Shown piece after piece: positions 6,086 through 49,032 of a stretch of 51,215 nucleotides of DNA. The notes beneath the pieces are model-generated. The model made no database searches. It worked only from the letters and a program-made list of their open reading frames with translations, and had not been told where the DNA came from. Source of the stretch: a virus (taxonomy: Duplodnaviria; Caudoviricetes); IMG/VR virus record IMGVR_UViG_3300035128_000044, positions 1-51,215 of that record; one strand, given 5' to 3'. Position 1 is the first letter of the stretch. Each line of letters begins with the position of its first letter. The position numbers were made by a program, and so were the translations under genes.

Positions 6086-7657
6086 ATGACACAAGCGGTA
6101 GATTTACTTAGTGATATTGTCCGAGAGGAGCTTCCGCAGATGTTAATCGACATCGAGCCTACAGTTGCTCCTATGTTCTCCGAGATAAAGAGAACATCTA
6201 TGGGTGTAAAATCCCAAGAAGGTCTCGGTAAAGGCTATCAAGTTATTCATATCTATAATACTGGTTCCAGTGGTGCTTTGGAAAGTGGTGATCCACTTGG
6301 CCCTGGCATGACCTCTATTTCCGGCAACCAAGCTCAGCTTCTTGCTCTTGGTGATGCTGCTACAAATCAGGCTATTTTTCCAAAAGCTCAGGAAGTTCCT
6401 CACACAGGAGAGGTAAAAAGAACCCTTACTTTACATAAAGTAAATGGTAACTATAGTATTCCTGTAGCTTGGAAACAACTGGAAACTCTTAATGCGGCTC
6501 AGTTGGGTAAGGTCTTCCGTGATTTGAAGGCCGTTGCCAAACAAAAAGCCATTTATGAAGCCTCCAGCTTCTTTTCTCATTCTGTAACAAACAGTGCTGG
6601 TTACCCAAGTCAAGTTCTTGGTAGTATTTCTGCTATTGCAGAACATTCTTCTTGGACAGACTATATTGTAATAACACTGGATGAACAGTATGGAAGAATC
6701 GCCAACTTTATCAAAGGCCAAAAAGTTGATATTGTAGCCGATAGTTCTGGTACATTACAATCTGGTACGGCAACCGATGGAACAGATGTAAGAAATTATG
6801 CTACTTCGACCGCAAATTATATTATGCTTATCGTGGTTGATGTCGATTATCTTGGCAAGAAAATTACACTTCGTCCGGTTGATACTGGTACAGGGGGTTT
6901 GCCCGATTTTACGGCTGGTTACAGAACTGGTGGTGAAACACCCGGTGCGGCTGGTGATTGGATTTGTGCTGCAAATTCGACTATTTATACTTCTGGTGCT
7001 CGTCCTCAATATAGTTGGGGTTTGAACGATTGGGTAAAATCCTCTGGTCAAATTCTTGGTGGTGCTGATGGTGCTTCTGGTCTTGATTTGGACCTTTACA
7101 GTATGTTCAAAAGCCAAGTTGTTTCGGTTAATGCTTCATTAACAGACGACATAATTAATGCCTATATCGGTGGTTATCTGGATGCTTATCCAGGTGAAAC
7201 TCTCGATACAATTATAACGACTCAGGGTGTTCAACAGCAGTGGCTAAAACAATCCAGTCTTTATAATAATCGACAGAATTATGACCGCACAGGGAAATCC
7301 TTGAAATTCAAGGGTGGATGGACTTCCGTAGAATATGAATTCGGTGGAAGGAAATTCAACTGGGTTATAAGTCCAATGTGTTTGAGTAAAACACTTTACG
7401 GGCTTAAATTCAAAGGTAATAACCTGAAAAGATATGCTCCTCCGAAAATTGGTGGAACTTCGGAAATGATGGGTCCAGACCTTAACTTCCTTGCTCCACT
7501 TGCAGGACATAATGGAGTATTTATGGGTGTATCGGATAGTAATGGAAGACCTTTGGACTTGCTTCAAGCTCCATTCTGGTATTACGACCTCATCTGTCCA
7601 GAAGACCCGAGAGGTCTCAAATTCACCGGCCTAACTGAGGCCACAATGACGGTTTAA
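6086..7657 (+). CDS. Major capsid protein
   Basis: 523 aa after the scaffold; strong RBS; HK97-like layout (GLNDWV, IITTQGV, KGGWTSVEY); followed by a terminator-like stem. Confidence 0.82.
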   Translation: MTQAVDLLSDIVREELPQMLIDIEPTVAPMFSEIKRTSMGVKSQEGLGKGYQVIHIYNTGSSGALESGDPLGPGMTSISGNQAQLLALGDAATNQAIFPKAQEVPHTGEVKRTLTLHKVNGNYSIPVAWKQLETLNAAQLGKVFRDLKAVAKQKAIYEASSFFSHSVTNSAGYPSQVLGSISAIAEHSSWTDYIVITLDEQYGRIANFIKGQKVDIVADSSGTLQSGTATDGTDVRNYATSTANYIMLIVVDVDYLGKKITLRPVDTGTGGLPDFTAGYRTGGETPGAAGDWICAANSTIYTSGARPQYSWGLNDWVKSSGQILGGADGASGLDLDLYSMFKSQVVSVNASLTDDIINAYIGGYLDAYPGETLDTIITTQGVQQQWLKQSSLYNNRQNYDRTGKSLKFKGGWTSVEYEFGGRKFNWVISPMCLSKTLYGLKFKGNNLKRYAPPKIGGTSEMMGPDLNFLAPLAGHNGVFMGVSDSNGRPLDLLQAPFWYYDLICPEDPRGLKFTGLTEATMTV

Positions 7658-27713: not shown

Positions 27714-28589
27714 ATGCCAGTTATAAAATATCAACATCAGAGATTAAATAGAAGTAGTTTGGTTATTATAGATTCAGCCAATGAAATTATTGAAGAATAC
27801 GAAGATGCAGGCTATGATTTAACCTTGCGACAATTGTATTATCAATTTGTGGCAAGAGATATTATTCCCAACAATGATAGGGAGTATAAGAGACTTGGGG
27901 GCATCATCAGCAATGCAAGATTAAATGGATTGATAGATTGGGACGCCATAATAGATAGGACTCGTTATCTAAGGAAAAATTCGCATTGGGAGTCTCCTCG
28001 TGAAATTATTGAGTCCTGTGCTGAGCAGTTCAAAATCGATCTTAGAGAAACACAAAAGGACTATGTCGAAGTCTGGATAGAGAAAGATGCGTTAATAGGT
28101 ATAGTGGATAGTGTTTGTGGACCTCTTGATGTTCCATGCTTTTCCTGTAGAGGTTATGTAAGTCAAAGTGCTATGTGGAGAGCGGCCAAAAGGTTGCTGG
28201 ATAAAGAAGTTTTCCACGATACACATATTTTACACTTAGGGGACCATGACCCAAGCGGTATTGATATGTCGCGTGATATAAAAGAACGTTTACATATGTT
28301 TGGCTCTAAGGTTGAGGTTCATCGAATAGCCTTAAATATGGACCAAGTAAAGGCTCAGAGTCCTCCACCAAATCCAGCTAAAATTACCGATAGCAGATGT
28401 GATTCCTACATTAAACGCTTCGGAACAAAGTCTTGGGAGTTGGATGCCTTGGAACCTTCTTTTTTGGATAATTTAATTACTGGAAGGATTAATTCTTTTA
28501 CGGACCAAGAAGAATTTGAGAATCAACAATTTATTCAAGACGAACACAGACAAACAATTATGCGTATAGCTAATAATATGGAGGAGTAA
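27714..28589 (+). CDS. Topoisomerase VI-A/Spo11-like (DUF2399-type) TOPRIM protein
   Basis: LTLRQLYYQFV winged helix with Tyr; VEVWIEKDAL, HLGDHDPSGIDM, WELDAL. Confidence 0.8.
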   Translation: MPVIKYQHQRLNRSSLVIIDSANEIIEEYEDAGYDLTLRQLYYQFVARDIIPNNDREYKRLGGIISNARLNGLIDWDAIIDRTRYLRKNSHWESPREIIESCAEQFKIDLRETQKDYVEVWIEKDALIGIVDSVCGPLDVPCFSCRGYVSQSAMWRAAKRLLDKEVFHDTHILHLGDHDPSGIDMSRDIKERLHMFGSKVEVHRIALNMDQVKAQSPPPNPAKITDSRCDSYIKRFGTKSWELDALEPSFLDNLITGRINSFTDQEEFENQQFIQDEHRQTIMRIANNMEE

Positions 28590-28799: not shown

Positions 28800-28988
28800 A
28801 TGAGTTTTAGAAAAACAAAAGCAGGAGTTACAATATGTCCATTTTTCACTTGGACATCCGAGAATATAGGCGAAATGTGCAAAAGTGAAAGTCACGAAGA
28901 CGATGTGAACCTAACCCATTGTACACATAAGGATAATCCAGACCACCTTGAAGGAAATTGTACAATAAAGAATTGCCCCTTATTATGA
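28800..28988 (+). CDS. Small Cys/His-rich protein
   Basis: CPFF...HCTH...EGNC...CPL. Confidence 0.6.
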   Translation: MSFRKTKAGVTICPFFTWTSENIGEMCKSESHEDDVNLTHCTHKDNPDHLEGNCTIKNCPLL

Positions 28989-31597
28989 TTGAGTTCAAAA
29001 GACATTCTGAGTGTGATAAATGTTTGTTGTGCCAATCGGCAAAGAATTCAGGACTTCCGACACGAGCACTTACACAGACCCTCGGCCCAACCAAAGAGAG
29101 AGCGGTCTTATTTGTAGGACAAAGCCCTGGACATAATGAAGATGTCCAGGCTTGCTCTTTCGTTGGATTTTCTGGGAAATTAGTAGAGGGTATGTGTAAA
29201 GCTTCAAAGTTAAGTATATATGCAGACATATATCTCGCCAATGCTTGTCGATGTAAACCTCCGCAGGGTGCTAATGAATCCCAATCTCAAATACGAGCTT
29301 GTCGTGAGTATTTAGTAGAGGATGTCGCTATATTGCAACAGTATTATAAGGAAGTAATTATCTTTGCTTTGGGAGCTAAAGCTTGTTATAGTACTCTTAA
29401 TATTAGTTCTTTGAATGAGACTCTTAAAAAACAAGGCAATTATAGTCCAGTATTGGGCAAGGTTCGGGTATTTGCTACATTTCATCCAGCAATGCTTGCT
29501 CCACATAGAAAACCAGGTTTAATTAGAGCCGTAGAAACTCACTTCTCTTTGCTAATCAGATATTTACAGGGTCGTTTTATTCCTAACAGTATTGAAGTAA
29601 CGCCGGAAGTATGTGGGGGTATACCCACTAAGACACCTGCGGAGGTTACGCTTGATATTGAAACATATGGTATTCTTTCGGGGCAGGAGCAGACTGTTTT
29701 TCATCCGATTAAATCAAAAGAAATAGATGGTATAGATTTTATTAATCAAGTCAAAACAGTCGGGTTTGGCTGGAGAGAGAATGGGAAAAAACTAAGAACT
29801 CCTTTATATTTATTCAAGTATAAAAGTCATAGGAATAGAATTCGGAGATGGTTAAGATTTATATCTCTAAACAATATTTTATGTGTTGGACAGAATATAA
29901 AGTTTGACCTTCTCTATTTAAGATATTGTGGCGATGCTGAGATACCTTATTGGATTGACCCCCGCAGGTTGAGGGTAGATGATACTCTTATTATGAGTTT
30001 TCTTCTATTTGAGCAACAACCTGAAAAAGGATTGAAGGAACTTTCAACCTTATTCGGTATTGCAGACTATTCCACTTCGGAAGTCACTGGAAAACATGGA
30101 AACGCTAAGTCTATACATGACCCGAAGTTACATTACTACCAATCACTTGATAATGCAGCAACATTAATTCTATATGAGGAGTTAAAACGTAGAATATTAG
30201 AAAAGTATGGACCGAATTCACCAAAGTTGTCACCTCTTAGTGCTTGGTGTCGTAACATGATTGTTTGGGACTGTGTTGACTTGGAAGCGAATGGTAGTGC
30301 ATTAAAGATACCGGAACTTCAAAAGTTTCACGACAAAGAAATTGATAATTGTAAGAAACTAAGGGAAGTATCGGAAAAATTTACTGGGATAAAACTTGCC
30401 GGAACTGGTTCGGATGCCCCGCTAAGACAACTTATGATGGATTGTGCAACAGAACTGCAAATAGGAGATAAAATTGAATGGACTAAAACAGGAAACATTT
30501 CGATTGGTATTGAAAATGTAAATCTTGTTAAGTCCGAAGTAAAGAAGCAAAAACTTTTCAAAAGTCGAAGCCTTAATATTAAAACTATTTCTCTCCTTCA
30601 TCAGTATAAAAAACGGTCAAAAATCACATCGACATATACGGGGCCATTATTAAATACTCCAAGGAAAGGTATTGTTACTCGGAATGGTGACATAGGCATT
30701 GTTTATCCTTCTTGGTATCCTGTTCCTTTATATGCCAGTAGAGGAGGAAGCAGTGATGATAAGTCTGGGGGGCAGATTCAAGGCAGATTTTCTTGTAAAG
30801 GCCCAGCCAGACAAACAGAGCCTAAAAGTATTAGGAAAGCTTCCCGGTCAAGATGGCCTAATGGAACATTGGTTGAATGTGACATGGCAGCAGACCATTT
30901 AAGGATGGCGGCTTTGCTGTCCGGCGATCCAATACTGCTCGAAGTTTATAACGATGAAACAAAAAGCCTGCATCACGAAACAGCGTTGACAATTTTTCCA
31001 GACGAACCTCGTGACGAATCGCCGGAAGCATTTAAGGAGCGGGAACCAGACAAATATAAACTTGGAAAGACTCTTAACTTTTTAATGATTTTTAGGGGTG
31101 GTCCAGAAGCATTCCAGAGAACAGCTTTGCAGGATTGTGGAATTGAGATTGGATTACATTTCTGTAGAAACGCTATAGATTCCTGGTTCAAAAAATATAA
31201 TGTGTACAAACAATGGCAGGATAGGATGATCCGGCTGGCCGCCGATAAGGGCTATCTTGAGATTCCTACTGGATGGTCTCGTACATTTGGTAGGGGCATG
31301 GCCAATATAGAGGGGCAAGTGGGGGAAGTATTAAACTTTCTCCACCAAGCCCCTTGTGCTCAGCTAACACAGTCGTGCCATTATAAAATAAAACATGAAT
31401 TTCTAAATAAAGATTACAAGAGTTTAATTGTATTAAATATTTATGATGCTCTCTTCAAAGATTCACCTGCGGAGGAAGAGGAAGCAACTACAAAAATTTT
31501 ATTTGATACAATGAATAATCCACCATTACTCCCAATATTCGAGCAATGGACAGAACATAAGGTAAAGTGGGCCGCAGAACTTAAGAGGTATAAATAA
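28985..31597 (+). CDS. polA: Family A DNA polymerase with N-terminal family-4 UDG-like domain and 3'-5' exonuclease
   Basis: UDG: CDKCLLC, FVGQSPG, ANACRCKPP, ACREYL, TFHPA; Exo: LDIET, GQNIKFDL, YQSLD; Pol: QGRFS, DMAADHLR, KTLNF, IYDA. Confidence 0.9.
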   Translation: MIEFKRHSECDKCLLCQSAKNSGLPTRALTQTLGPTKERAVLFVGQSPGHNEDVQACSFVGFSGKLVEGMCKASKLSIYADIYLANACRCKPPQGANESQSQIRACREYLVEDVAILQQYYKEVIIFALGAKACYSTLNISSLNETLKKQGNYSPVLGKVRVFATFHPAMLAPHRKPGLIRAVETHFSLLIRYLQGRFIPNSIEVTPEVCGGIPTKTPAEVTLDIETYGILSGQEQTVFHPIKSKEIDGIDFINQVKTVGFGWRENGKKLRTPLYLFKYKSHRNRIRRWLRFISLNNILCVGQNIKFDLLYLRYCGDAEIPYWIDPRRLRVDDTLIMSFLLFEQQPEKGLKELSTLFGIADYSTSEVTGKHGNAKSIHDPKLHYYQSLDNAATLILYEELKRRILEKYGPNSPKLSPLSAWCRNMIVWDCVDLEANGSALKIPELQKFHDKEIDNCKKLREVSEKFTGIKLAGTGSDAPLRQLMMDCATELQIGDKIEWTKTGNISIGIENVNLVKSEVKKQKLFKSRSLNIKTISLLHQYKKRSKITSTYTGPLLNTPRKGIVTRNGDIGIVYPSWYPVPLYASRGGSSDDKSGGQIQGRFSCKGPARQTEPKSIRKASRSRWPNGTLVECDMAADHLRMAALLSGDPILLEVYNDETKSLHHETALTIFPDEPRDESPEAFKEREPDKYKLGKTLNFLMIFRGGPEAFQRTALQDCGIEIGLHFCRNAIDSWFKKYNVYKQWQDRMIRLAADKGYLEIPTGWSRTFGRGMANIEGQVGEVLNFLHQAPCAQLTQSCHYKIKHEFLNKDYKSLIVLNIYDALFKDSPAEEEEATTKILFDTMNNPPLLPIFEQWTEHKVKWAAELKRYK

Positions 31598-31765
31598 ATG
31601 AGTATTCAAAAAACACATAAGCTAAATGGTGTTCACTCTCTTTGTGGAAAAAAAGTTTTATCCTGCATTACTACATCTAAAATAGAGGATGTAAATTGTA
31701 TAAGATGTTTAAGAAAATTTAATAAAGAGGAGCAAAGTAATGCCAATTCCAAGAAAAACCGATAA
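31598..31765 (+). CDS. Small zinc-finger-like protein
   Basis: Not in the track; H...SLCGKK...VNCIRCLRK. Confidence 0.55.
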   Translation: MSIQKTHKLNGVHSLCGKKVLSCITTSKIEDVNCIRCLRKFNKEEQSNANSKKNR

Positions 31766-32321
31766 GTACTATCGTTATAACATCCCAAATGTGGTAACGG
31801 TACAAATTGACACTCGTGAACAGATTCCTATGCTGTTCCCGGAGTTGATTAAAATAGGGGACCCAGAACTTACGTACAACAGCTTGCCGATTGGAGTCAA
31901 GGTCGAAAAAGCAAAGCTCGACTATGGTGACTATAGGCTAAAGGAGTACCCAGATATTTGTGTGTTTGAACGGAAAGCATCCCAACTGGAGCTTTACAAA
32001 AACATGAACGAAAGTCGGGATCGAATCCGTCAAGCTAAGGCGTTCAGAAAATTAGCTACTCAATGTAAATTCCCCTATCTGTTAATTGAATGTTCTCCAG
32101 CTGAATTACTGGCTAACGATGCTCGGGTAAAAAATCCAGAATTGTTGGTACATCGAATCAGTCTTGCTATTGCTAAATATAACCTTCGGGCTTTATTTAT
32201 CCCTTGGCGTAGTCGAGATGCAAATATTAGACGGAAAGTTGGTTGCTTAATGATTCACTTAATGCTTGGATGTGTTCTACAAGAATCGTTTGATGTTCCC
32301 CCCGTTTTATTAGAGGAGTAA
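31740..32321 (+). CDS. ERCC4/XPF-family nuclease, probable junction resolvase
   Basis: IDTREQ, LDYGDY, VFERK motifs. Confidence 0.85.
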   Translation: MPIPRKTDKYYRYNIPNVVTVQIDTREQIPMLFPELIKIGDPELTYNSLPIGVKVEKAKLDYGDYRLKEYPDICVFERKASQLELYKNMNESRDRIRQAKAFRKLATQCKFPYLLIECSPAELLANDARVKNPELLVHRISLAIAKYNLRALFIPWRSRDANIRRKVGCLMIHLMLGCVLQESFDVPPVLLEE

Positions 32322-39124: not shown

Positions 39125-39642
39125 ATAAGAAGTGTATAAAGGAAGATTGTTTATATTTTGCTAATTATACAGATAAAATGTATCCTTGCTGTGAGTGTAT
39201 TGACATGACAGCTTTAGGAACTGTGTATACACACTTTAATCCTAAATCCAGAGTGCCAACGTTAGTTGGTAAAGAAACTAATTCCAAAGATGCTATCGAC
39301 GTGAATAAAATGGGTCAAAAAGAGTTTGATGAATTTATGGAATTTATTATCGAGAAGCATGTTAAGAACGTCATGTGCAATAAATCTGCTGAGTATGCTC
39401 AAGGTGGGGATAAATTACATAACTTTAGACGGGCGGCTCGAATGCACGACACTACGCCAATCGAGGCTTTGCGGGGAATGAAGTTGAAGCATGACTGTTC
39501 CATTGAGGATATGCTTGACGGTTTACGAGAAGGAAAAACATATAGCCAAGAATTATGGCAGGAAAAACTCCATGACCAAATCAATTATATTTTTTTAATG
39601 TGGGCCTTACTATATAAGGATAATGGGTGGGAACTAAAATGA
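39121..39642 (+). CDS. DUF1599/MazG-like all-alpha nucleotide-associated domain protein
   Basis: KSAEYAQGGDKLHNF...KH...EKLHDQINY. Confidence 0.6.
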   Translation: MNKKCIKEDCLYFANYTDKMYPCCECIDMTALGTVYTHFNPKSRVPTLVGKETNSKDAIDVNKMGQKEFDEFMEFIIEKHVKNVMCNKSAEYAQGGDKLHNFRRAARMHDTTPIEALRGMKLKHDCSIEDMLDGLREGKTYSQELWQEKLHDQINYIFLMWALLYKDNGWELK

Positions 39643-39947
39643 AAGTAAGTTCCGACTTATTCAATGGCTTGTTTGAATTTCTTGCTGCTCCGTTTATCTG
39701 GTTAAGCATACGAAATTTACTAAAAACTAAAAAGATTAATGGGGTCTCTTGGGTACATGTTGCCTTTTTCACACTATGGGGATATTGGAATTTATTCTAT
39801 TATCCTCATCTTGAGCAATGGTATTCCTTAGCCGGAGGAATTGCAGTGGTGATAACAAACTCAATTTGGGTTTGGTTTCTTATTAAATATAGTCGAAAGG
39901 GAAAAAATGGGCACAGCCATAGTGACATATACCGGCAAGATATTTGA
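39639..39947 (+). CDS. 3-TM PQ-loop/SemiSWEET-like membrane protein
   Basis: SIRNLLKTKKINGVSW, then two further TM helices. Confidence 0.55.
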   Translation: MKVSSDLFNGLFEFLAAPFIWLSIRNLLKTKKINGVSWVHVAFFTLWGYWNLFYYPHLEQWYSLAGGIAVVITNSIWVWFLIKYSRKGKNGHSHSDIYRQDI

Positions 39948-40533
39948 TTACTCGAATATACAGCCTTCTATGATTTGTATTGAGGATATTGCTCATAGCT
40001 TGGCTTTAACTAATCGTTATAATGGTATGACAAGATACCCTTATTCAGTTGCAGAACATTGTGTTAGAATGGCTTTATGTGATGACTTGCCGGGACATCC
40101 TTTAGCCAAGTTGTTACATGATGCAGCCGAGGCTTATATAGGTGATATTGTTAAGCCCTTCAAAGCTGGTTTGCGTTATTTGGAACATGGATTCGAGGAG
40201 AATGAACGTTATTACTATAAGATAGAGACGTTAGAGCACGAGATTCAAAATGCGATTCTAAAAGCTTTCAATATCAAAGTAAAGATGGGTCAACGAAACG
40301 AGGATTTGGATTGGATGTGGTTAAATTCATCCGAAGTAAAACATTCGGATATGGCTATACTTGCGGAGGAATGTAATGTACTAATGCCAGATAATGAGAT
40401 AAGTAAAAAGGAATTTGAAAAATGGCTCGCAGGTGTAACTCCATCAAAAACTGGATTAACACATTGGAATATATATCCTTGGTTGAAAGCGAGAACGTTA
40501 TATTATAACACTTTTAAGGAACTCACGAAATGA
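39907..40533 (+). CDS. HD-domain phosphohydrolase (YfbR/YfdR-like)
   Basis: IEDIAHSLA..NRYNG, YSVAEHC, LLHDAAEAYIGDI. Confidence 0.88.
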   Translation: MGTAIVTYTGKIFDYSNIQPSMICIEDIAHSLALTNRYNGMTRYPYSVAEHCVRMALCDDLPGHPLAKLLHDAAEAYIGDIVKPFKAGLRYLEHGFEENERYYYKIETLEHEIQNAILKAFNIKVKMGQRNEDLDWMWLNSSEVKHSDMAILAEECNVLMPDNEISKKEFEKWLAGVTPSKTGLTHWNIYPWLKARTLYYNTFKELTK

Positions 40534-41888: not shown

Positions 41889-42239
41889 ATGAAAGCTCGT
41901 AAAGGTTTAATGGTCAATGTTAAGAGTGGGGGGTGGGGCAGAGTATTAGAAGGGTGTGGCTCCACACATAAACCGGTACACTTAGAAGTCGGAAATACAG
42001 AATATCGAGTGTTGGCTACCAAATGTGCACTTCCCCTTGATAATCATAATTTTGCTAATACATTAATACAAAATATAGAAACTAAGATATGTATTGCAAT
42101 TAACGAGGATGATTTGATACCAGCTATATCCGAAATAACTTTGGACTTCCATGTCAACGGGATTCGTATAACAGATGATTTAAGTATAGAAAGTAAAAAA
42201 GCTATACTGCATAAAATGCTTGATACTCTGGGAGCGTAA
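41889..42239 (+). CDS. Hypothetical protein
   Basis: GGAGG RBS before ATG 41889. Confidence 0.65.
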   Translation: MKARKGLMVNVKSGGWGRVLEGCGSTHKPVHLEVGNTEYRVLATKCALPLDNHNFANTLIQNIETKICIAINEDDLIPAISEITLDFHVNGIRITDDLSIESKKAILHKMLDTLGA

Positions 42240-42240
42240 A

Positions 42241-42486
42241 ATGAGTGTCCCATTAAAACAGAAGTGTTTGAAAAACTTTCTCATTCGATGCTGCTATTGG
42301 TACTATGTGAAAGTTCAGCCGATTATAATCGACTATGAATTTGATATGGAGTTTAAGAGGCTGCAAAAGATGGAAGAAGAAAGCGGCCAGGTTGAGAAAG
42401 ACTCTCCGACACAAATGATTTGGGGTGATACAGAAAGCCAGTACCCAGAATGGGTTAAAGAGTATATGGAGGACAAAAATGAATAA
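42241..42486 (+). CDS. Stand-alone NAD-dependent DNA ligase domain Ia-like protein
   Basis: YWYYVKVQPIIIDYEFDMEFKRLQKME...DSPTQ matches the LigA N-terminal YY...P.ISD.EYD.L..EL..LE...DSPTQ pattern. Confidence 0.75.
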   Translation: MSVPLKQKCLKNFLIRCCYWYYVKVQPIIIDYEFDMEFKRLQKMEEESGQVEKDSPTQMIWGDTESQYPEWVKEYMEDKNE

Positions 42487-44574: not shown

Positions 44575-45186
44575 ATGTATATTCAAATAACTACACGTTG
44601 CAATATGTCCTGTGAACACTGTTGTAATAATTGTACTTCCGAAGGGGAGGATATATCATTGAGTACTTTTAGAAAAGCTTTAACCTTCGATGAATATATT
44701 ACTATTGGCGGGGGTGAACCCACTTTACATAAGCACTTTTGGCAAATATTGGGGGAAAGTATCGCGGCGGCTGAATATGTCTGGCTTGCTACTAATGGTA
44801 GTCAAACACAAATTGCAATTGCTCTTGCGGCTATGGCAAGTAAAGGGGTGATAGGATGTGCACTTTCCCAAGATTATTATCACGATGAGATTGATGAAAG
44901 AGTAATTGAAGCTTTTACAAAAAAGAATAATTCAGGTAATGAAGATCATCGAGAAATTAGAGACGTTTCAGGGAATGAGATAAATGCGGGACGTTGTGAC
45001 TTTGGCGTCGAAGAACGTTGTTGTTGTGAAGACTTAATAGTAAAACCAAACGGGGACATTTTCGCTTGTGGTTGTGAAGACTCCCTGAAAATTGGGGATG
45101 TAAGAAAAGGTTACAACTTGCCCGATGAATGGGAAATCGGGGAATGTTGGAAAAAACAAGAAGTGAAACTTGCGGGGGTTAAATAA
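44575..45186 (+). CDS. Radical SAM protein with Cys-rich (SPASM/twitch-like) C-terminus
   Basis: CNMSCEHC (CxxxCxxC), GGGEPTLH, ATNGS, CCC...VKPNGDIFACGC. Confidence 0.88.
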   Translation: MYIQITTRCNMSCEHCCNNCTSEGEDISLSTFRKALTFDEYITIGGGEPTLHKHFWQILGESIAAAEYVWLATNGSQTQIAIALAAMASKGVIGCALSQDYYHDEIDERVIEAFTKKNNSGNEDHREIRDVSGNEINAGRCDFGVEERCCCEDLIVKPNGDIFACGCEDSLKIGDVRKGYNLPDEWEIGECWKKQEVKLAGVK

Positions 45187-47387: not shown

Positions 47388-47648
47388 TTAAATCTTTTCT
47401 TGAACGCCTTCAAATACATATACTCTTTTACCTATTTTACCTTTTCTGACTTTACTCATTTTCGGGAAAACACTACGAACTGCTTTACCAAAAACTCTAA
47501 TATTACAAGGACCATATCCTCGTGATATTATCCATTTTCTATAAACTTCATACAAAATTTTAACTTCTATCCAAACAGAATCGTCAGGTATAAATTCATA
47601 ATTTTCTCTTAAAAATATCTTACTCATTTTTATGCCAAAATTATTCAT
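47388..47648 (-). CDS. Stand-alone winged-helix protein paralogous to the helicase C-terminus
   Basis: FLRENY...LYEVYRKW...GY.P...RVFGKAV..VFP...YVFEG aligns with the helicase tail. Confidence 0.75.
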   Translation of the reverse strand: MNNFGIKMSKIFLRENYEFIPDDSVWIEVKILYEVYRKWIISRGYGPCNIRVFGKAVRSVFPKMSKVRKGKIGKRVYVFEGVQEKI

Positions 47649-47649
47649 A

Positions 47650-49032
47650 TTATTTCTCCTTCAATTTAGGTTTTGTTAAATACCCCTGGACTTCCGCTCC
47701 GACCTGGAACTTCAATCCCTCATATACATAATGCCTATACTCTCTTCCTCCGATCCTTCGTTTAGCAGTTTGTGGAAAGGCTCTAAGCACCTCCTTGCCA
47801 AATGTCCTATCGCTCATCGGCTGGTAGCCCTTTTCCCTGCACCAGATTCGATAAATCTTGTAAACAGTCTCGGTTCTAACACCCAATGGATATGTCGAAT
47901 CATAATAATAATTCTCTCTCAAATACATACCAGCCGGATTCGATTCCTCCTTAAACCTTCTCCAAACAGCCTCACTCGCTTCCGGCTTACAGAATCCTCC
48001 ATTAGCTTTTAGCTTCATCATACCCATAATAGCCCAATTCAGAATACCAGGCATCTCAGCTTCCAACTTCGCATCCAAATCTGGGTCAACCTCCGCAGTG
48101 TTTCGAACGAACGGCACAACTTTTAACCTTCTCCAGGTTCCCATACTCTTATCCGTGAAATTTGGAAAATCATTACAAAGAACCATAAGCTTCGCAGTTG
48201 CCTCGGCTGTAAATGCGTCTCCCCATTTTCTTTCAAAATCCAAACCATCGGCTCCGGTCCAGGTTTTAATAACAGCTTCGATCTGTGGTGTGAGTTCCTG
48301 CTCCGCGTCTCCGGCCACATTCAGCTTTTTCCCAAAGGTCATATAAAGTGAGAAATTATTACCAAACCTGCGGAGGGGTAAATCACTACAATTATTTCGA
48401 CCGAGCATATTTTTCATCGCTCTGGCAAACGTGCTCTTTCCGGCTGCCGCTTCCCCAATACATAAAAGGAAGCATTGGTATTCTTGGGTAGGCATTAATA
48501 GGTATCCAGCCCACATTTGAAGAAGTTCCTGTAATTCTTTATCCCCACTGGTAATTTCCTCCATAAATTGCAACCAACGAGTACATTTTGCATTTTCATC
48601 GAAATCATAGGGAAGCTTATTAATCGTGAAGAAATCTGGGGTCTTGGCCGATTTGGTAATCGTCCCATCCGGCATAAACGTTAAAATCCAATTATTTAAT
48701 ACAATTGCTTCAACCGTTTTATTCGGTTCTTTATCGGTAAGCCAAGTATTCAAAAGTCTACCGTACGGAATGTTGGCCTGGGCTTTAAGATTTAATCGAA
48801 TATTCTCAATTAGTTTTGTGCTTGCTTCGACATGGTTTTTCGCCGCGAACTTCACAAGAAAAGCTGTGAGATCATTTTTATTTACTTTTTGATAAACACT
48901 TCCATTCCATAGGTAGAAGTCGTCCCGCCAAAAAATTAGAACTTGTTTTTTCTCCCCATTGAATTGTTTATGGCCTATAGCCTGAAAGAACCCATATGCA
49001 ATTCCGGCTGGAGTTGGTTTATCCTTGTCCAT
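47650..49032 (-). CDS. SF3 (D5/P4-alpha-like) helicase lacking an N-terminal primase domain
   Basis: LPYDFDENAKCTRWLQF, GEAAAGKST, IKTWTGAD, CNDFP, WRRLKVVPF, C-terminal winged helix. Confidence 0.88.
   Translation of the reverse strand: MDKDKPTPAGIAYGFFQAIGHKQFNGEKKQVLIFWRDDFYLWNGSVYQKVNKNDLTAFLVKFAAKNHVEASTKLIENIRLNLKAQANIPYGRLLNTWLTDKEPNKTVEAIVLNNWILTFMPDGTITKSAKTPDFFTINKLPYDFDENAKCTRWLQFMEEITSGDKELQELLQMWAGYLLMPTQEYQCFLLCIGEAAAGKSTFARAMKNMLGRNNCSDLPLRRFGNNFSLYMTFGKKLNVAGDAEQELTPQIEAVIKTWTGADGLDFERKWGDAFTAEATAKLMVLCNDFPNFTDKSMGTWRRLKVVPFVRNTAEVDPDLDAKLEAEMPGILNWAIMGMMKLKANGGFCKPEASEAVWRRFKEESNPAGMYLRENYYYDSTYPLGVRTETVYKIYRIWCREKGYQPMSDRTFGKEVLRAFPQTAKRRIGGREYRHYVYEGLKFQVGAEVQGYLTKPKLKEK

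Follow-up and report, generated by a model that had tools for sequence, protein, structure and literature searches.

Replacement of the steric-gate Ile-Glu dipeptide by Asp-His in a clade of phage UDG–exonuclease–PolA fusion polymerases

The phage record IMGVR_UViG_3300035128_000044, analyzed here over its full length as a window of 51,215 bases (estimated completeness 94%), encodes on its plus strand a fusion protein that joins a uracil-DNA glycosylase (UDG) with 3'-5' exonuclease and family A DNA polymerase (PolA) modules. The gene spans positions 28958–31597 and specifies 879 residues from a TTG start codon; the database copy of the protein starts at the ATG at 28985 and comprises 870 residues. 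PHROG 17 ("DNA polymerase") matches residues 46–855 of the fusion (1.3e-53). The family-4 UDG domain at the N terminus (residues 45–184; 29090–29509) scores 65.4 bits against Pfam PF03167, for which the cut-off is 24.3, and matches PDB entry 4zbx at 9e-15. The exonuclease domain (29630–30187) contains intact ExoI (DIET, 29654–29665), ExoII (NIKFD, 29894–29908), and ExoIII (YQSLD, 30137–30151) motifs, and the PolA domain (residues 539–854; 30572–31519) lies above the curated threshold of the PF00476 profile (65.1 bits; cut-off 34.3). The steric-gate Glu is treated as a constant of family A polymerases; in this enzyme and its closest relatives, the Ile-Glu dipeptide that contains it reads Asp-His.

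The register of the active site was set by pairwise phmmer/HMMER alignments to solved PolA enzymes, namely G20c Pol I (7r0k), Aquifex Pol I (8jrb), and Taq, and the three independent PDB references give one and the same register, in which the catalytic residues D642 and D830 align with Taq D610 and D785. Phage residues are given below in the numbering of the 879-residue protein and their canonical counterparts in Klenow numbering. Motif A reads DMAADHLR (30881–30904), compared to DYSQIELR in Taq, DYASMELV in G20c, and DFSQIELR in Aquifex. Following the catalytic D642, D646-H647 (30893–30898) occupy the places of I709 and the steric gate E710; H647 aligns with Taq E615 and with the gate Glu of the G20c and Aquifex enzymes, and the gate Glu that marks a PolA is thus absent. 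Motif B, on the O helix, is YKLGKTLNFLMIF (31055–31093) versus RRAAKTINFGVLY in Taq, with Y700, K704, F708, and F712 equivalent to R754, K758, F762, and Y766. This motif is mixed: the Lys and the first Phe are retained, and Tyr for R754 and Phe for Y766 are both variants that also occur in relatives with a Glu gate. In motif C, IYDA (its YDA part at 31442–31450) replaces VHDE of Taq, Y829, D830, and A831 corresponding to H881, the catalytic D882, and E883. The family's version of the TGR motif is the QGR of QGRFS (30779–30787; TGRMS in Aquifex), in which R610 is R668. Motif 6 reads NFLHQAPC (31334–31357), with N793 as N845, H796 at the M848 position, Q797 as Q849, and P799 and C800 beyond it; R610, N793, and Q797 are therefore all retained. 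Finally, S670-L-H672 (30965–30973) carries Ser in place of D732 and keeps H734.

A first-pass annotation of this DNA had named five substitutions (E710H, R754Y, Y766F, H881Y, and E883A) and five retained residues (D705, D882, K758, F762, and R668, the last four being D830, K704, F708, and R610). Re-translation of the coordinates and the alignments to Taq, Aquifex, and G20c bear out each of these assignments, in the register used by that annotation and with the motifs inside 30770–31460. The same alignments add I709D (D646), Q708A (A645), D732S (S670), M848H (H796), and Gln for the Thr of TGR (Q608) to its list. Among these, Q708A is confined to this sequence and three of the 88 members of the clade described below.

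Relatives were collected in two ways. A word-index search returned 247 relatives, the best 120 of which are 40–63% identical to the query and nearly all 830–900 residues long, and an exhaustive search of 1.84 billion cluster representatives returned 10,740 matches, 400 of them below 1e-30; the best 150 of the 10,740 matches are almost all UDG–exonuclease–PolA fusions of similar length. One alignment (A2) comprises 146 representatives, in which the R754 column was scored by counting back from the invariant Lys, and a joint alignment comprises 237 full-length relatives. Among the 146 representatives, the gate position is Glu in 143 and His in 3, and the I709 position is Asp only in the same three His-gate sequences. 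The counts at the other named positions are Tyr 84 and Phe 61 at Y766, Tyr 89 and His 48 at H881, and Ala 69, Ser 46, Glu 17, and Asp 8 at E883; R754 is Arg in 118, Tyr in 21, Lys in 1, and not found in 6. Because the same states are common in the 146 representatives, Y766F, H881Y, and E883A are, judged from the alignment, ordinary family-wide states of the UDG-PolA family.

The gate change has a different distribution. The 237 full-length relatives divide into 88 with Asp-His, 148 with Glu, and 1 with Ser-His, and the Asp-His pair is present in 88/88 members of one clade and 0/148 Glu-gate sequences, a distribution that exceeds chance. Columns with a conservation of 85% or more in the Asp-His clade whose residue occurs in no more than 5% of other sequences are Y144, S447, V518, Q606, R618, S629, D646, H647, S670, Y750, H796, P799, C800, W864, W871, and Y878; they concentrate at Q606, R618, D646, H647, S670, H796, P799, and C800. 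R618 (codon 30809–30811), 3' of QGR, occurs in 88/88 clade members and 0.7% of others. By this comparison, the clade-specific change is I709D together with E710H, the motif 6 changes (Val to His, Thr to Pro, and Ala to Cys), and the new Arg618; position B4, that of Y766, is in addition Phe in all 88 members. A Glu-to-His exchange takes two nucleotide changes, and the gate His codon in 17 distinct Asp-His loci with available DNA is CAT in 9 and CAC in 8, synonymous variation that, at the level of sequence, indicates long maintenance under purifying selection.

R754Y follows another pattern. It is found in 22 of the 148 Glu-gate relatives, always with loss of D732, and the two positions covary: position 670 is Asp in 121/125 sequences when Arg is present and in 0/110 when position 700 is Tyr. 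In Tyr754 sequences, residue 670 is Asn (13), Ser (7), or another residue (2) among the 22 Glu-gate relatives, and Ser (79) or Asn (9) in the Asp-His clade. Since close pairs such as P0105 (Arg) and P0111 (Tyr) differ at this position, R754Y represents an exchange, repeated within the family, in which a neutral pair takes the place of a charged one. The active site was thus aptly called rewired as far as I709D/E710H and motif 6 are concerned, which are clade-specific; the description does not extend to Y766F, H881Y, and E883A, which are family-wide, or to the recurrent R754Y. As separate observations, the Arg754/Asp732 and Tyr754/(Ser or Asn)732 states are mutually exclusive among the 237 sequences and toggle between near relatives; in the Tyr754 state the catalytic Glu of the UDG domain tends to be lost and, among Glu-gate sequences, E883 tends to be retained (14/22). 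QGR replaces TGR throughout the UDG-PolA family, Gln608 being nearly invariant; the 2023 PolA reclassification mentions just one cluster with a residue other than Thr (Ala) at this position (PMC10201439).

An accumulation of non-canonical residues at E710, R754, Y766, and E883 might also be expected of an enzyme whose polymerase center is dead and which serves as an exonuclease or a DNA-binding scaffold. The conservation of the remaining site makes this highly improbable. The catalytic Asp pair is invariant in the 146 aligned representatives, and among the 120 closest relatives D642 is conserved in 118, D830 in 115 (the rest being gaps), K704 in 114, F708 in 115, R610 in 119, and Q797 in 115. 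The exonuclease motifs are conserved in at least 114 of the 120, with D233 kept in 118, E235 in 119, and D317 and D398 in all 120. These patterns indicate that D705, D882, K758, F762, R668, N845, Q849, and H734 are under purifying selection, and E883 and R754 are dispensable in many Glu-gate relatives. The earlier description of the polymerase as intact is therefore supported: the ORF runs uninterrupted over a length typical of the family and retains the catalytic Asp pair, K758, F762, R668, N845, Q849, and all three exonuclease motifs.

The genome likewise argues against a dead polymerase. PHROG and Pfam scans of 43 open reading frames (ORFs) of the record yielded no second polymerase, a six-frame search in which positive controls were detected yielded no PolB, Prim-Pol, or Toprim_4 domain, and no alternative polymerase was found in ten annotated sister genomes. 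The UDG–exonuclease–PolA fusion is accordingly the only recognizable DNA polymerase of the phage.

The Asp-His sequences are monophyletic, with a FastTree local support of 100 (92 rows) and an IQ-TREE Shimodaira–Hasegawa-like approximate likelihood ratio (SH-aLRT) support of 99 (48 rows), and the Asp-His solution is retained down to approximately 45% identity. A basal subclade (P0089, P0091, and P0092) already has Asp-His, Tyr754, Ser670, Arg618, Pro799, and Cys800; its residue 796 is Ile, and the H881 position is His in two of the three sequences. His796 was gained in the crown group. The Ser-His sequence (P0094, on contig G006/L019, with the same motifs in a second contig, L026) is nested in another well-supported group, which is Ile-Glu. 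The gate His state needs two changes on the tree, and a tree constrained to unite all His sequences in a single clade is worse by 62.5 log-likelihood units (approximately unbiased [AU] test, p-AU 0.012), the constrained group having been chosen after a first tree was inspected. On this phylogeny, the gate His arose twice, separately, in the UDG-PolA family.

The two origins share features beyond the His itself. The Ser-His enzyme retains R754, D732, and the UDG Glu, its B4 residue is Phe whereas its four nearest Glu-gate relatives have Tyr, and its motif 6 residue 800 is Asp, a position occupied in the Glu-gate sequences by Ala (122), Ser (22), Thr (3), or Gly (1). In both lineages, a gate His is accompanied by a B4 change from Tyr to Phe and a new ionizable residue at position 800, and a carboxylate lies beside the gate His in each, D646 in one and D800 in the other.

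An AlphaFold2 model, built with a 120-sequence alignment, has a mean predicted local distance difference test (pLDDT) score of 92.2 and a predicted template-modeling (pTM) score of 0.87. Its elements include a strand at 637–643, a helix from 646 (as PolA helix L), the O helix at 697–711, and the motif 6 helix at 781–817. Foldseek matches are Aquifex Pol I (8jrb; E 2.6e-24, TM 0.78), the Bst large fragment (TM up to 0.81; 3ht3, 0.81), the apicoplast polymerase, and the Klenow fragment (1kfs, TM 0.74). The structure prediction thus returns a PolA fold at Foldseek TM scores of 0.74–0.81, and the modeled protein has a Klenow-type exonuclease plus polymerase fold.

In DNA polymerase theta (Pol theta), the gate Glu packs against C2' of the incoming sugar, and hydrogen bonds run from its carboxylate to the Tyr of motif B, the Gln of motif 6, and the Arg of TGR; the orientation of this Glu is described as alike in all PolA structures (PMC6158600). 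The clade-defining changes of the phage enzymes sit at or beside these published partners, in motif A, at B4, flanking the motif 6 Gln, and around the TGR-type motif. On balance, we lean toward a reading of the sequences in which the fusion is an active replicase whose gate network has been rebuilt as a compensated Asp-His pair and which would still be DNA-templated, proofreading, and dNTP-using. In such a mechanism, the gate Glu and its surroundings would have been exchanged together rather than as a lone mutation, and the pair would split the two jobs of Glu710. The imidazole of His647 would form the platform under C2' of the incoming sugar, while the carboxylate of D646 would maintain the charge and the hydrogen-bond contact with the TGR Arg and the motif 6 Gln. 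The two-metal chemistry would remain intact. R754Y with D732S is a separate, recurrent charged-to-neutral pair swap. The register, the conservation and covariation, the two origins of the His, the fold, and the lack of another polymerase in the searches are observations, and the geometry of the Asp-His pair and the retention of dNTP specificity are what we infer in this scheme.

Several considerations weigh against it. Taq E615 tolerates mainly conservative changes, hydrophilic substitutions of I614 raise the use of ribonucleoside triphosphates (NTPs), and E615G also confers NTP incorporation (PMC6158600); by analogy with this mutagenesis, an Asp-His pair could change specificity instead of keeping it. 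That residues 646, 647, 796, 800, 610, and 618 lie close together is deduced from covariation and from the published description of another PolA. In addition, E883 is absent, although its absence is family-wide, and at 94% completeness the record may lack some gene.

Altered sugar selectivity is possible, and the first-pass annotation had suggested that the enzyme may accept ribonucleotides or modified nucleotides. In this alternative, a changed selectivity would itself have been selected, and a His gate with a second His by the motif 6 Gln would admit ribo-, 2'-modified, or arabino nucleotides, which could serve self-priming, RNA-DNA hybrid synthesis, or a sugar-modified genome. I709 and E710 are the positions mutated in Taq variants that take NTPs or 2'-modified NTPs (I614K, SFR3, AA40, and SFM19), and SFM19 (I614E/E615G) likewise shifts an acid to the preceding position (PMC9738464, PMC6158600); Phe at B4 in 88/88 clade members, and the fact that no primase domain was found in the record, would fit as well. 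However, His is bulkier than the engineered Gly and could block a 2'-hydroxyl as Glu does, the carboxylate kept beside it is equally compatible with a compensated and with an opened gate, F762 is retained, and no enzyme that makes a sugar-modified nucleotide was found in PHROG, Pfam, and NCBIfam scans of the record. The priming argument is not clade-specific, because no recognizable primase was found in the Ile-Glu sister phages either (PHROG search of cluster representatives and of singletons of at least 150 residues; 101 proteins matched at E <= 1e-5) and the helicase type swaps within the Asp-His clade, a D5/P4-type superfamily 3 (SF3) helicase being present in this phage and in G005 and DnaB-like helicases in G001–G004 and G008. 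A missing primase was rejected on these same grounds as an explanation of Asp-His. Taken together, selection for a changed sugar choice appears unlikely, if worth keeping in view.

The chemistry of the new residues suggests a further alternative, in which D646, H647, H796, and C800 would bind a structural metal, for instance zinc, and thereby make the floor of the nucleotide pocket more rigid, the gate being a metal-held platform. All four are classical metal ligands that arose in the same clade, and the modeled motif 6 helix places H796 and C800 at positions i and i+4. The phylogeny makes this doubtful. The basal sequences have Asp-His and C800 with Ile796, and the Ser-His lineage has Asp rather than Cys at 800 and lacks H796, so that a His gate can exist without the complete set of four ligands.

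Genome comparison was used to look for genes that accompany the Asp-His gate. ORFs were called and clustered in ten related complete or near-complete contigs and this phage. Common to all eleven are the structural module, the polymerase, an ERCC4-like nuclease, a PD-(D/E)XK exonuclease, the Sak4 protein, an SSB-like gene, and one gene of unknown function. An HD-domain phosphohydrolase of the YfbR/Atu1052-like type (39907–40533, plus strand; phrog_318, 9e-44; PDB 2gz4, 7.5e-10) is present in 7/7 fully examined Asp-His genomes and 0/4 others, and no other gene in the eleven clustered genomes is both common to all Asp-His phages and absent from the rest. An earlier single-sequence scan of viral contigs with the HD protein had returned only unrelated phages; a profile built from the seven proteins and run on named records detected the gene in three additional Asp-His records, of which one is 93% complete, failed to detect it in two fragments of 79% and 48% completeness, and had no match in ten further Glu-gate genomes at least 92% complete. 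Overall, the HD gene is found in 8/8 near-complete Asp-His genomes (G000–G005, G007, and G012), 2/4 fragments, and 0/14 near-complete Glu or Ser-His genomes. Because the Asp-His clade is monophyletic, this co-occurrence counts once, as a lead and not as proof of coupling, and a functional link between the HD gene and the Asp-His polymerase is an inference only. A small ORF upstream of the HD gene (39627–39947; cluster 28) accompanies it in 5/7 genomes. A metallophosphoesterase beside the HD gene was considered as a nucleotide hydrolase and rejected, since it resembles an SbcD/Mre11-type protein that would pair with the SbcC-like ATPase.

The combination of a phage PolA with Phe at B4 and a genomic HD-domain phosphohydrolase is shared with DpoZ and DatZ of the Z-genome phages. 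By the same logic, the polymerase might be adapted to a non-canonical base pool from which the clade-specific HD enzyme clears the competing canonical nucleotide. The distribution of the HD gene fits this idea, as does its retention while neighboring replication genes were exchanged, and the phages that encode UDG-PolAs of the SPO1 and SP15 type have modified thymidine (PMC10201439, PMC13697223). The altered residues, however, ring the sugar and not the base, the HD co-occurrence represents one evolutionary event, and no additional gene tracks the clade. Scans of the record against PHROG, Pfam, and NCBIfam found no thymidylate-synthase homologue, PurZ, dCTP deaminase, or 7-deazaguanine genes (DpdA and Que), and no PurZ or adenylosuccinate-synthetase-like ORF was found in the Pfam scan. 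The NCBIfam DpoZ model NF038381 scores 30.7 bits against a cut-off of 350, and a PDB search with the HD protein returned no DatZ entry at E <= 1. Phe at B4 is called unique to the two DpoZ clusters in the 2023 survey (PMC10201439), whereas it is common here (61 of 146 representatives). Moreover, the HD protein resembles YfbR/Atu1052-type enzymes, and phrog_318 is annotated as "deoxyribonucleoside 5' monophosphate phosphatase." A phosphatase of this kind is linked to host-DNA scavenging by phage T5. An adaptation to modified bases consequently seems rather improbable.

A bolder proposal combines these elements: the Asp-His gate and the motif 6 His would read the 2' position by hydrogen bonding, the genome would be copied with ribo- or 2'-modified nucleotides or chains would start de novo, and the HD enzyme would trim competing deoxynucleotides. 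We regard this as a long shot; if true, no earlier case of a natural PolA with a reprogrammed choice of sugar would precede it.

In motif A of the UDG domain, GQSPG (29117–29131), the catalytic Glu is replaced by Gln (Q55), while motif B His176 (29483–29485) is kept and present in 108/120 relatives; the corresponding catalytic residues of the phiLo DNA polymerase (DNAP) are E53 and H178 (PMC13697223). NCBIfam TIGR00758 scores 78.6 on the domain, below its cut-off of 125.3. The Glu of the GE[A/G]PG motif is Gln in 80/88 and Glu in 0/88 members of the Asp-His clade, and it is kept in 94/125 Glu-gate/Arg754 and 3/22 Glu-gate/Tyr754 relatives. The domain is thus probably not an efficient glycosylase, and loss of the catalytic Glu suggests that it is probably a DNA-binding or uracil-sensing module instead. 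For UDG domains without activity, the literature proposes a part in processivity or in strand handling (PMC10201439, PMC13697223). UDG inactivation was rejected as a marker of the clade, as the Glu is lost also in the Glu-gate/Tyr754 group and in G008.

UDG-PolA fusions are known in three forms, N4-like with an inactive UDG, SPO1-like, and SP15-like (PMC10201439, PMC13697223). The present family, by sequence, is a large fourth set seen only in metagenomes, with at most 26% identity to any cultured phage PolA (tblastn). The N4-like enzymes (cluster 17 of Czernecki et al. 2023) are likewise proposed to be phage replicases, and their inactive UDG was suggested to serve processivity (PMC10201439). 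No N4-type phage occurs among the 30 tblastn matches listed or among the organism names shown in a tally of 145 matching phage records; a direct comparison with the N4 protein was not part of the analysis. In SPO1-like and SP15-like enzymes, UDG, exonuclease, and PolA follow one another as they do here (Missoury et al. 2026, PMC13697223). According to the same source, their UDG keeps the catalytic Glu and His, scans the template ahead of the polymerase, and excises deoxyuridine; those of the SP15 type are enlarged by sizeable inserts and an added C-terminal domain (YerA41 DNAP, 1306 residues), and the phages have hypermodified thymidine and a repair set of Pol X plus ligase. In contrast, the present enzyme has Q55 in its UDG and no inserts, and thymidine-modification genes were not found in the record.

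Key motif residues are reported as strictly conserved in all 19 clusters of the PolA survey (PMC10201439), whereas the A2 position is His here. Parallels exist among engineered enzymes: Taq SFM19 (I614E/E615G), AA40, SFR3, and I614K are changed at the same two adjacent positions of motif A (PMC9738464, PMC6158600), SFM19 and AA40 being variants that accept 2'-modified nucleotides (PMC9738464). In the engineered gates, Gly makes room for a 2' substituent, whereas the natural clade has His together with co-evolved B4, motif 6, and Arg618. Full-text literature searches found no natural His-gate PolA and no paper on E710H, E615H, E658H, E480H, or E2335H.

The remaining genes of the record are those of an uncultured phage lineage with genomes of approximately 52 kb. 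They include a terminase, a portal, tail genes, the ERCC4-like nuclease, an SbcC-like ATPase, a PD-(D/E)XK exonuclease, a Sak4-type annealing protein, an SSB-like protein, and the D5/P4-type SF3 helicase. The terminase is at most 27% identical to those of cultured phages over partial alignments (24% for the top match), a 523-residue protein encoded at 6086–7657 has no family match and no homologue found among cultured phages, and a scan of genome contigs placed one genuine relative on a 17.7 kb contig of a Clostridiales metagenome-assembled genome. Directly upstream of the polymerase, a 291-residue protein (27714–28589, plus strand) matches phrog_6247 ("DNA topoisomerase") at 5.9e-108; among the ten sister genomes only G005 has a counterpart, and no Pfam family matches at threshold. 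Just downstream, the ERCC4-like nuclease (31740–32321, plus strand) is the best-conserved non-structural gene of the 11 phages (48–68% identity) and is likely to be part of a core replication or recombination module. The SF3 helicase (47388–49032, minus strand; 460 residues, without a primase domain) is common only to G005, and a separate 86-residue ORF after it repeats its RFX/Pox_D5 C-terminal DNA-binding domain. An 88-residue ORF (42220–42486, plus strand) resembles only the N-terminal Ia, nicotinamide mononucleotide (NMN)-binding domain of LigA (NF005932, 1.2e-7; Pfam Nlig-Ia, 0.028) and has homologues in the related phages G002 and G005; such a stand-alone domain could modulate the host ligase. 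A 203-residue radical SAM protein (44575–45186, plus strand), found only in this phage among the 11 genomes, has weak matches to many maturases and matches the viperin family at 3e-8, far below the cut-off.

To our knowledge, nearly everything known about changes of the PolA gate comes from laboratory mutants that lose activity or fidelity. Nature has swapped the gate twice in one phage polymerase family, each time with compensating changes, and a large, apparently functional replicase family can dispense with or exchange R754 with D732, Y766, H881, and E883. The Ile-Glu sisters, the Ser-His form, the basal Asp-His form, and the crown Asp-His-His-Cys form make up a ready series for the design of sugar selection, and the enzymes may offer a starting scaffold for polymerases that handle modified sugars. 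More generally, with approximately ninety related phages conserving the same change, the clade provides a natural test case for how family A polymerases choose their sugar.

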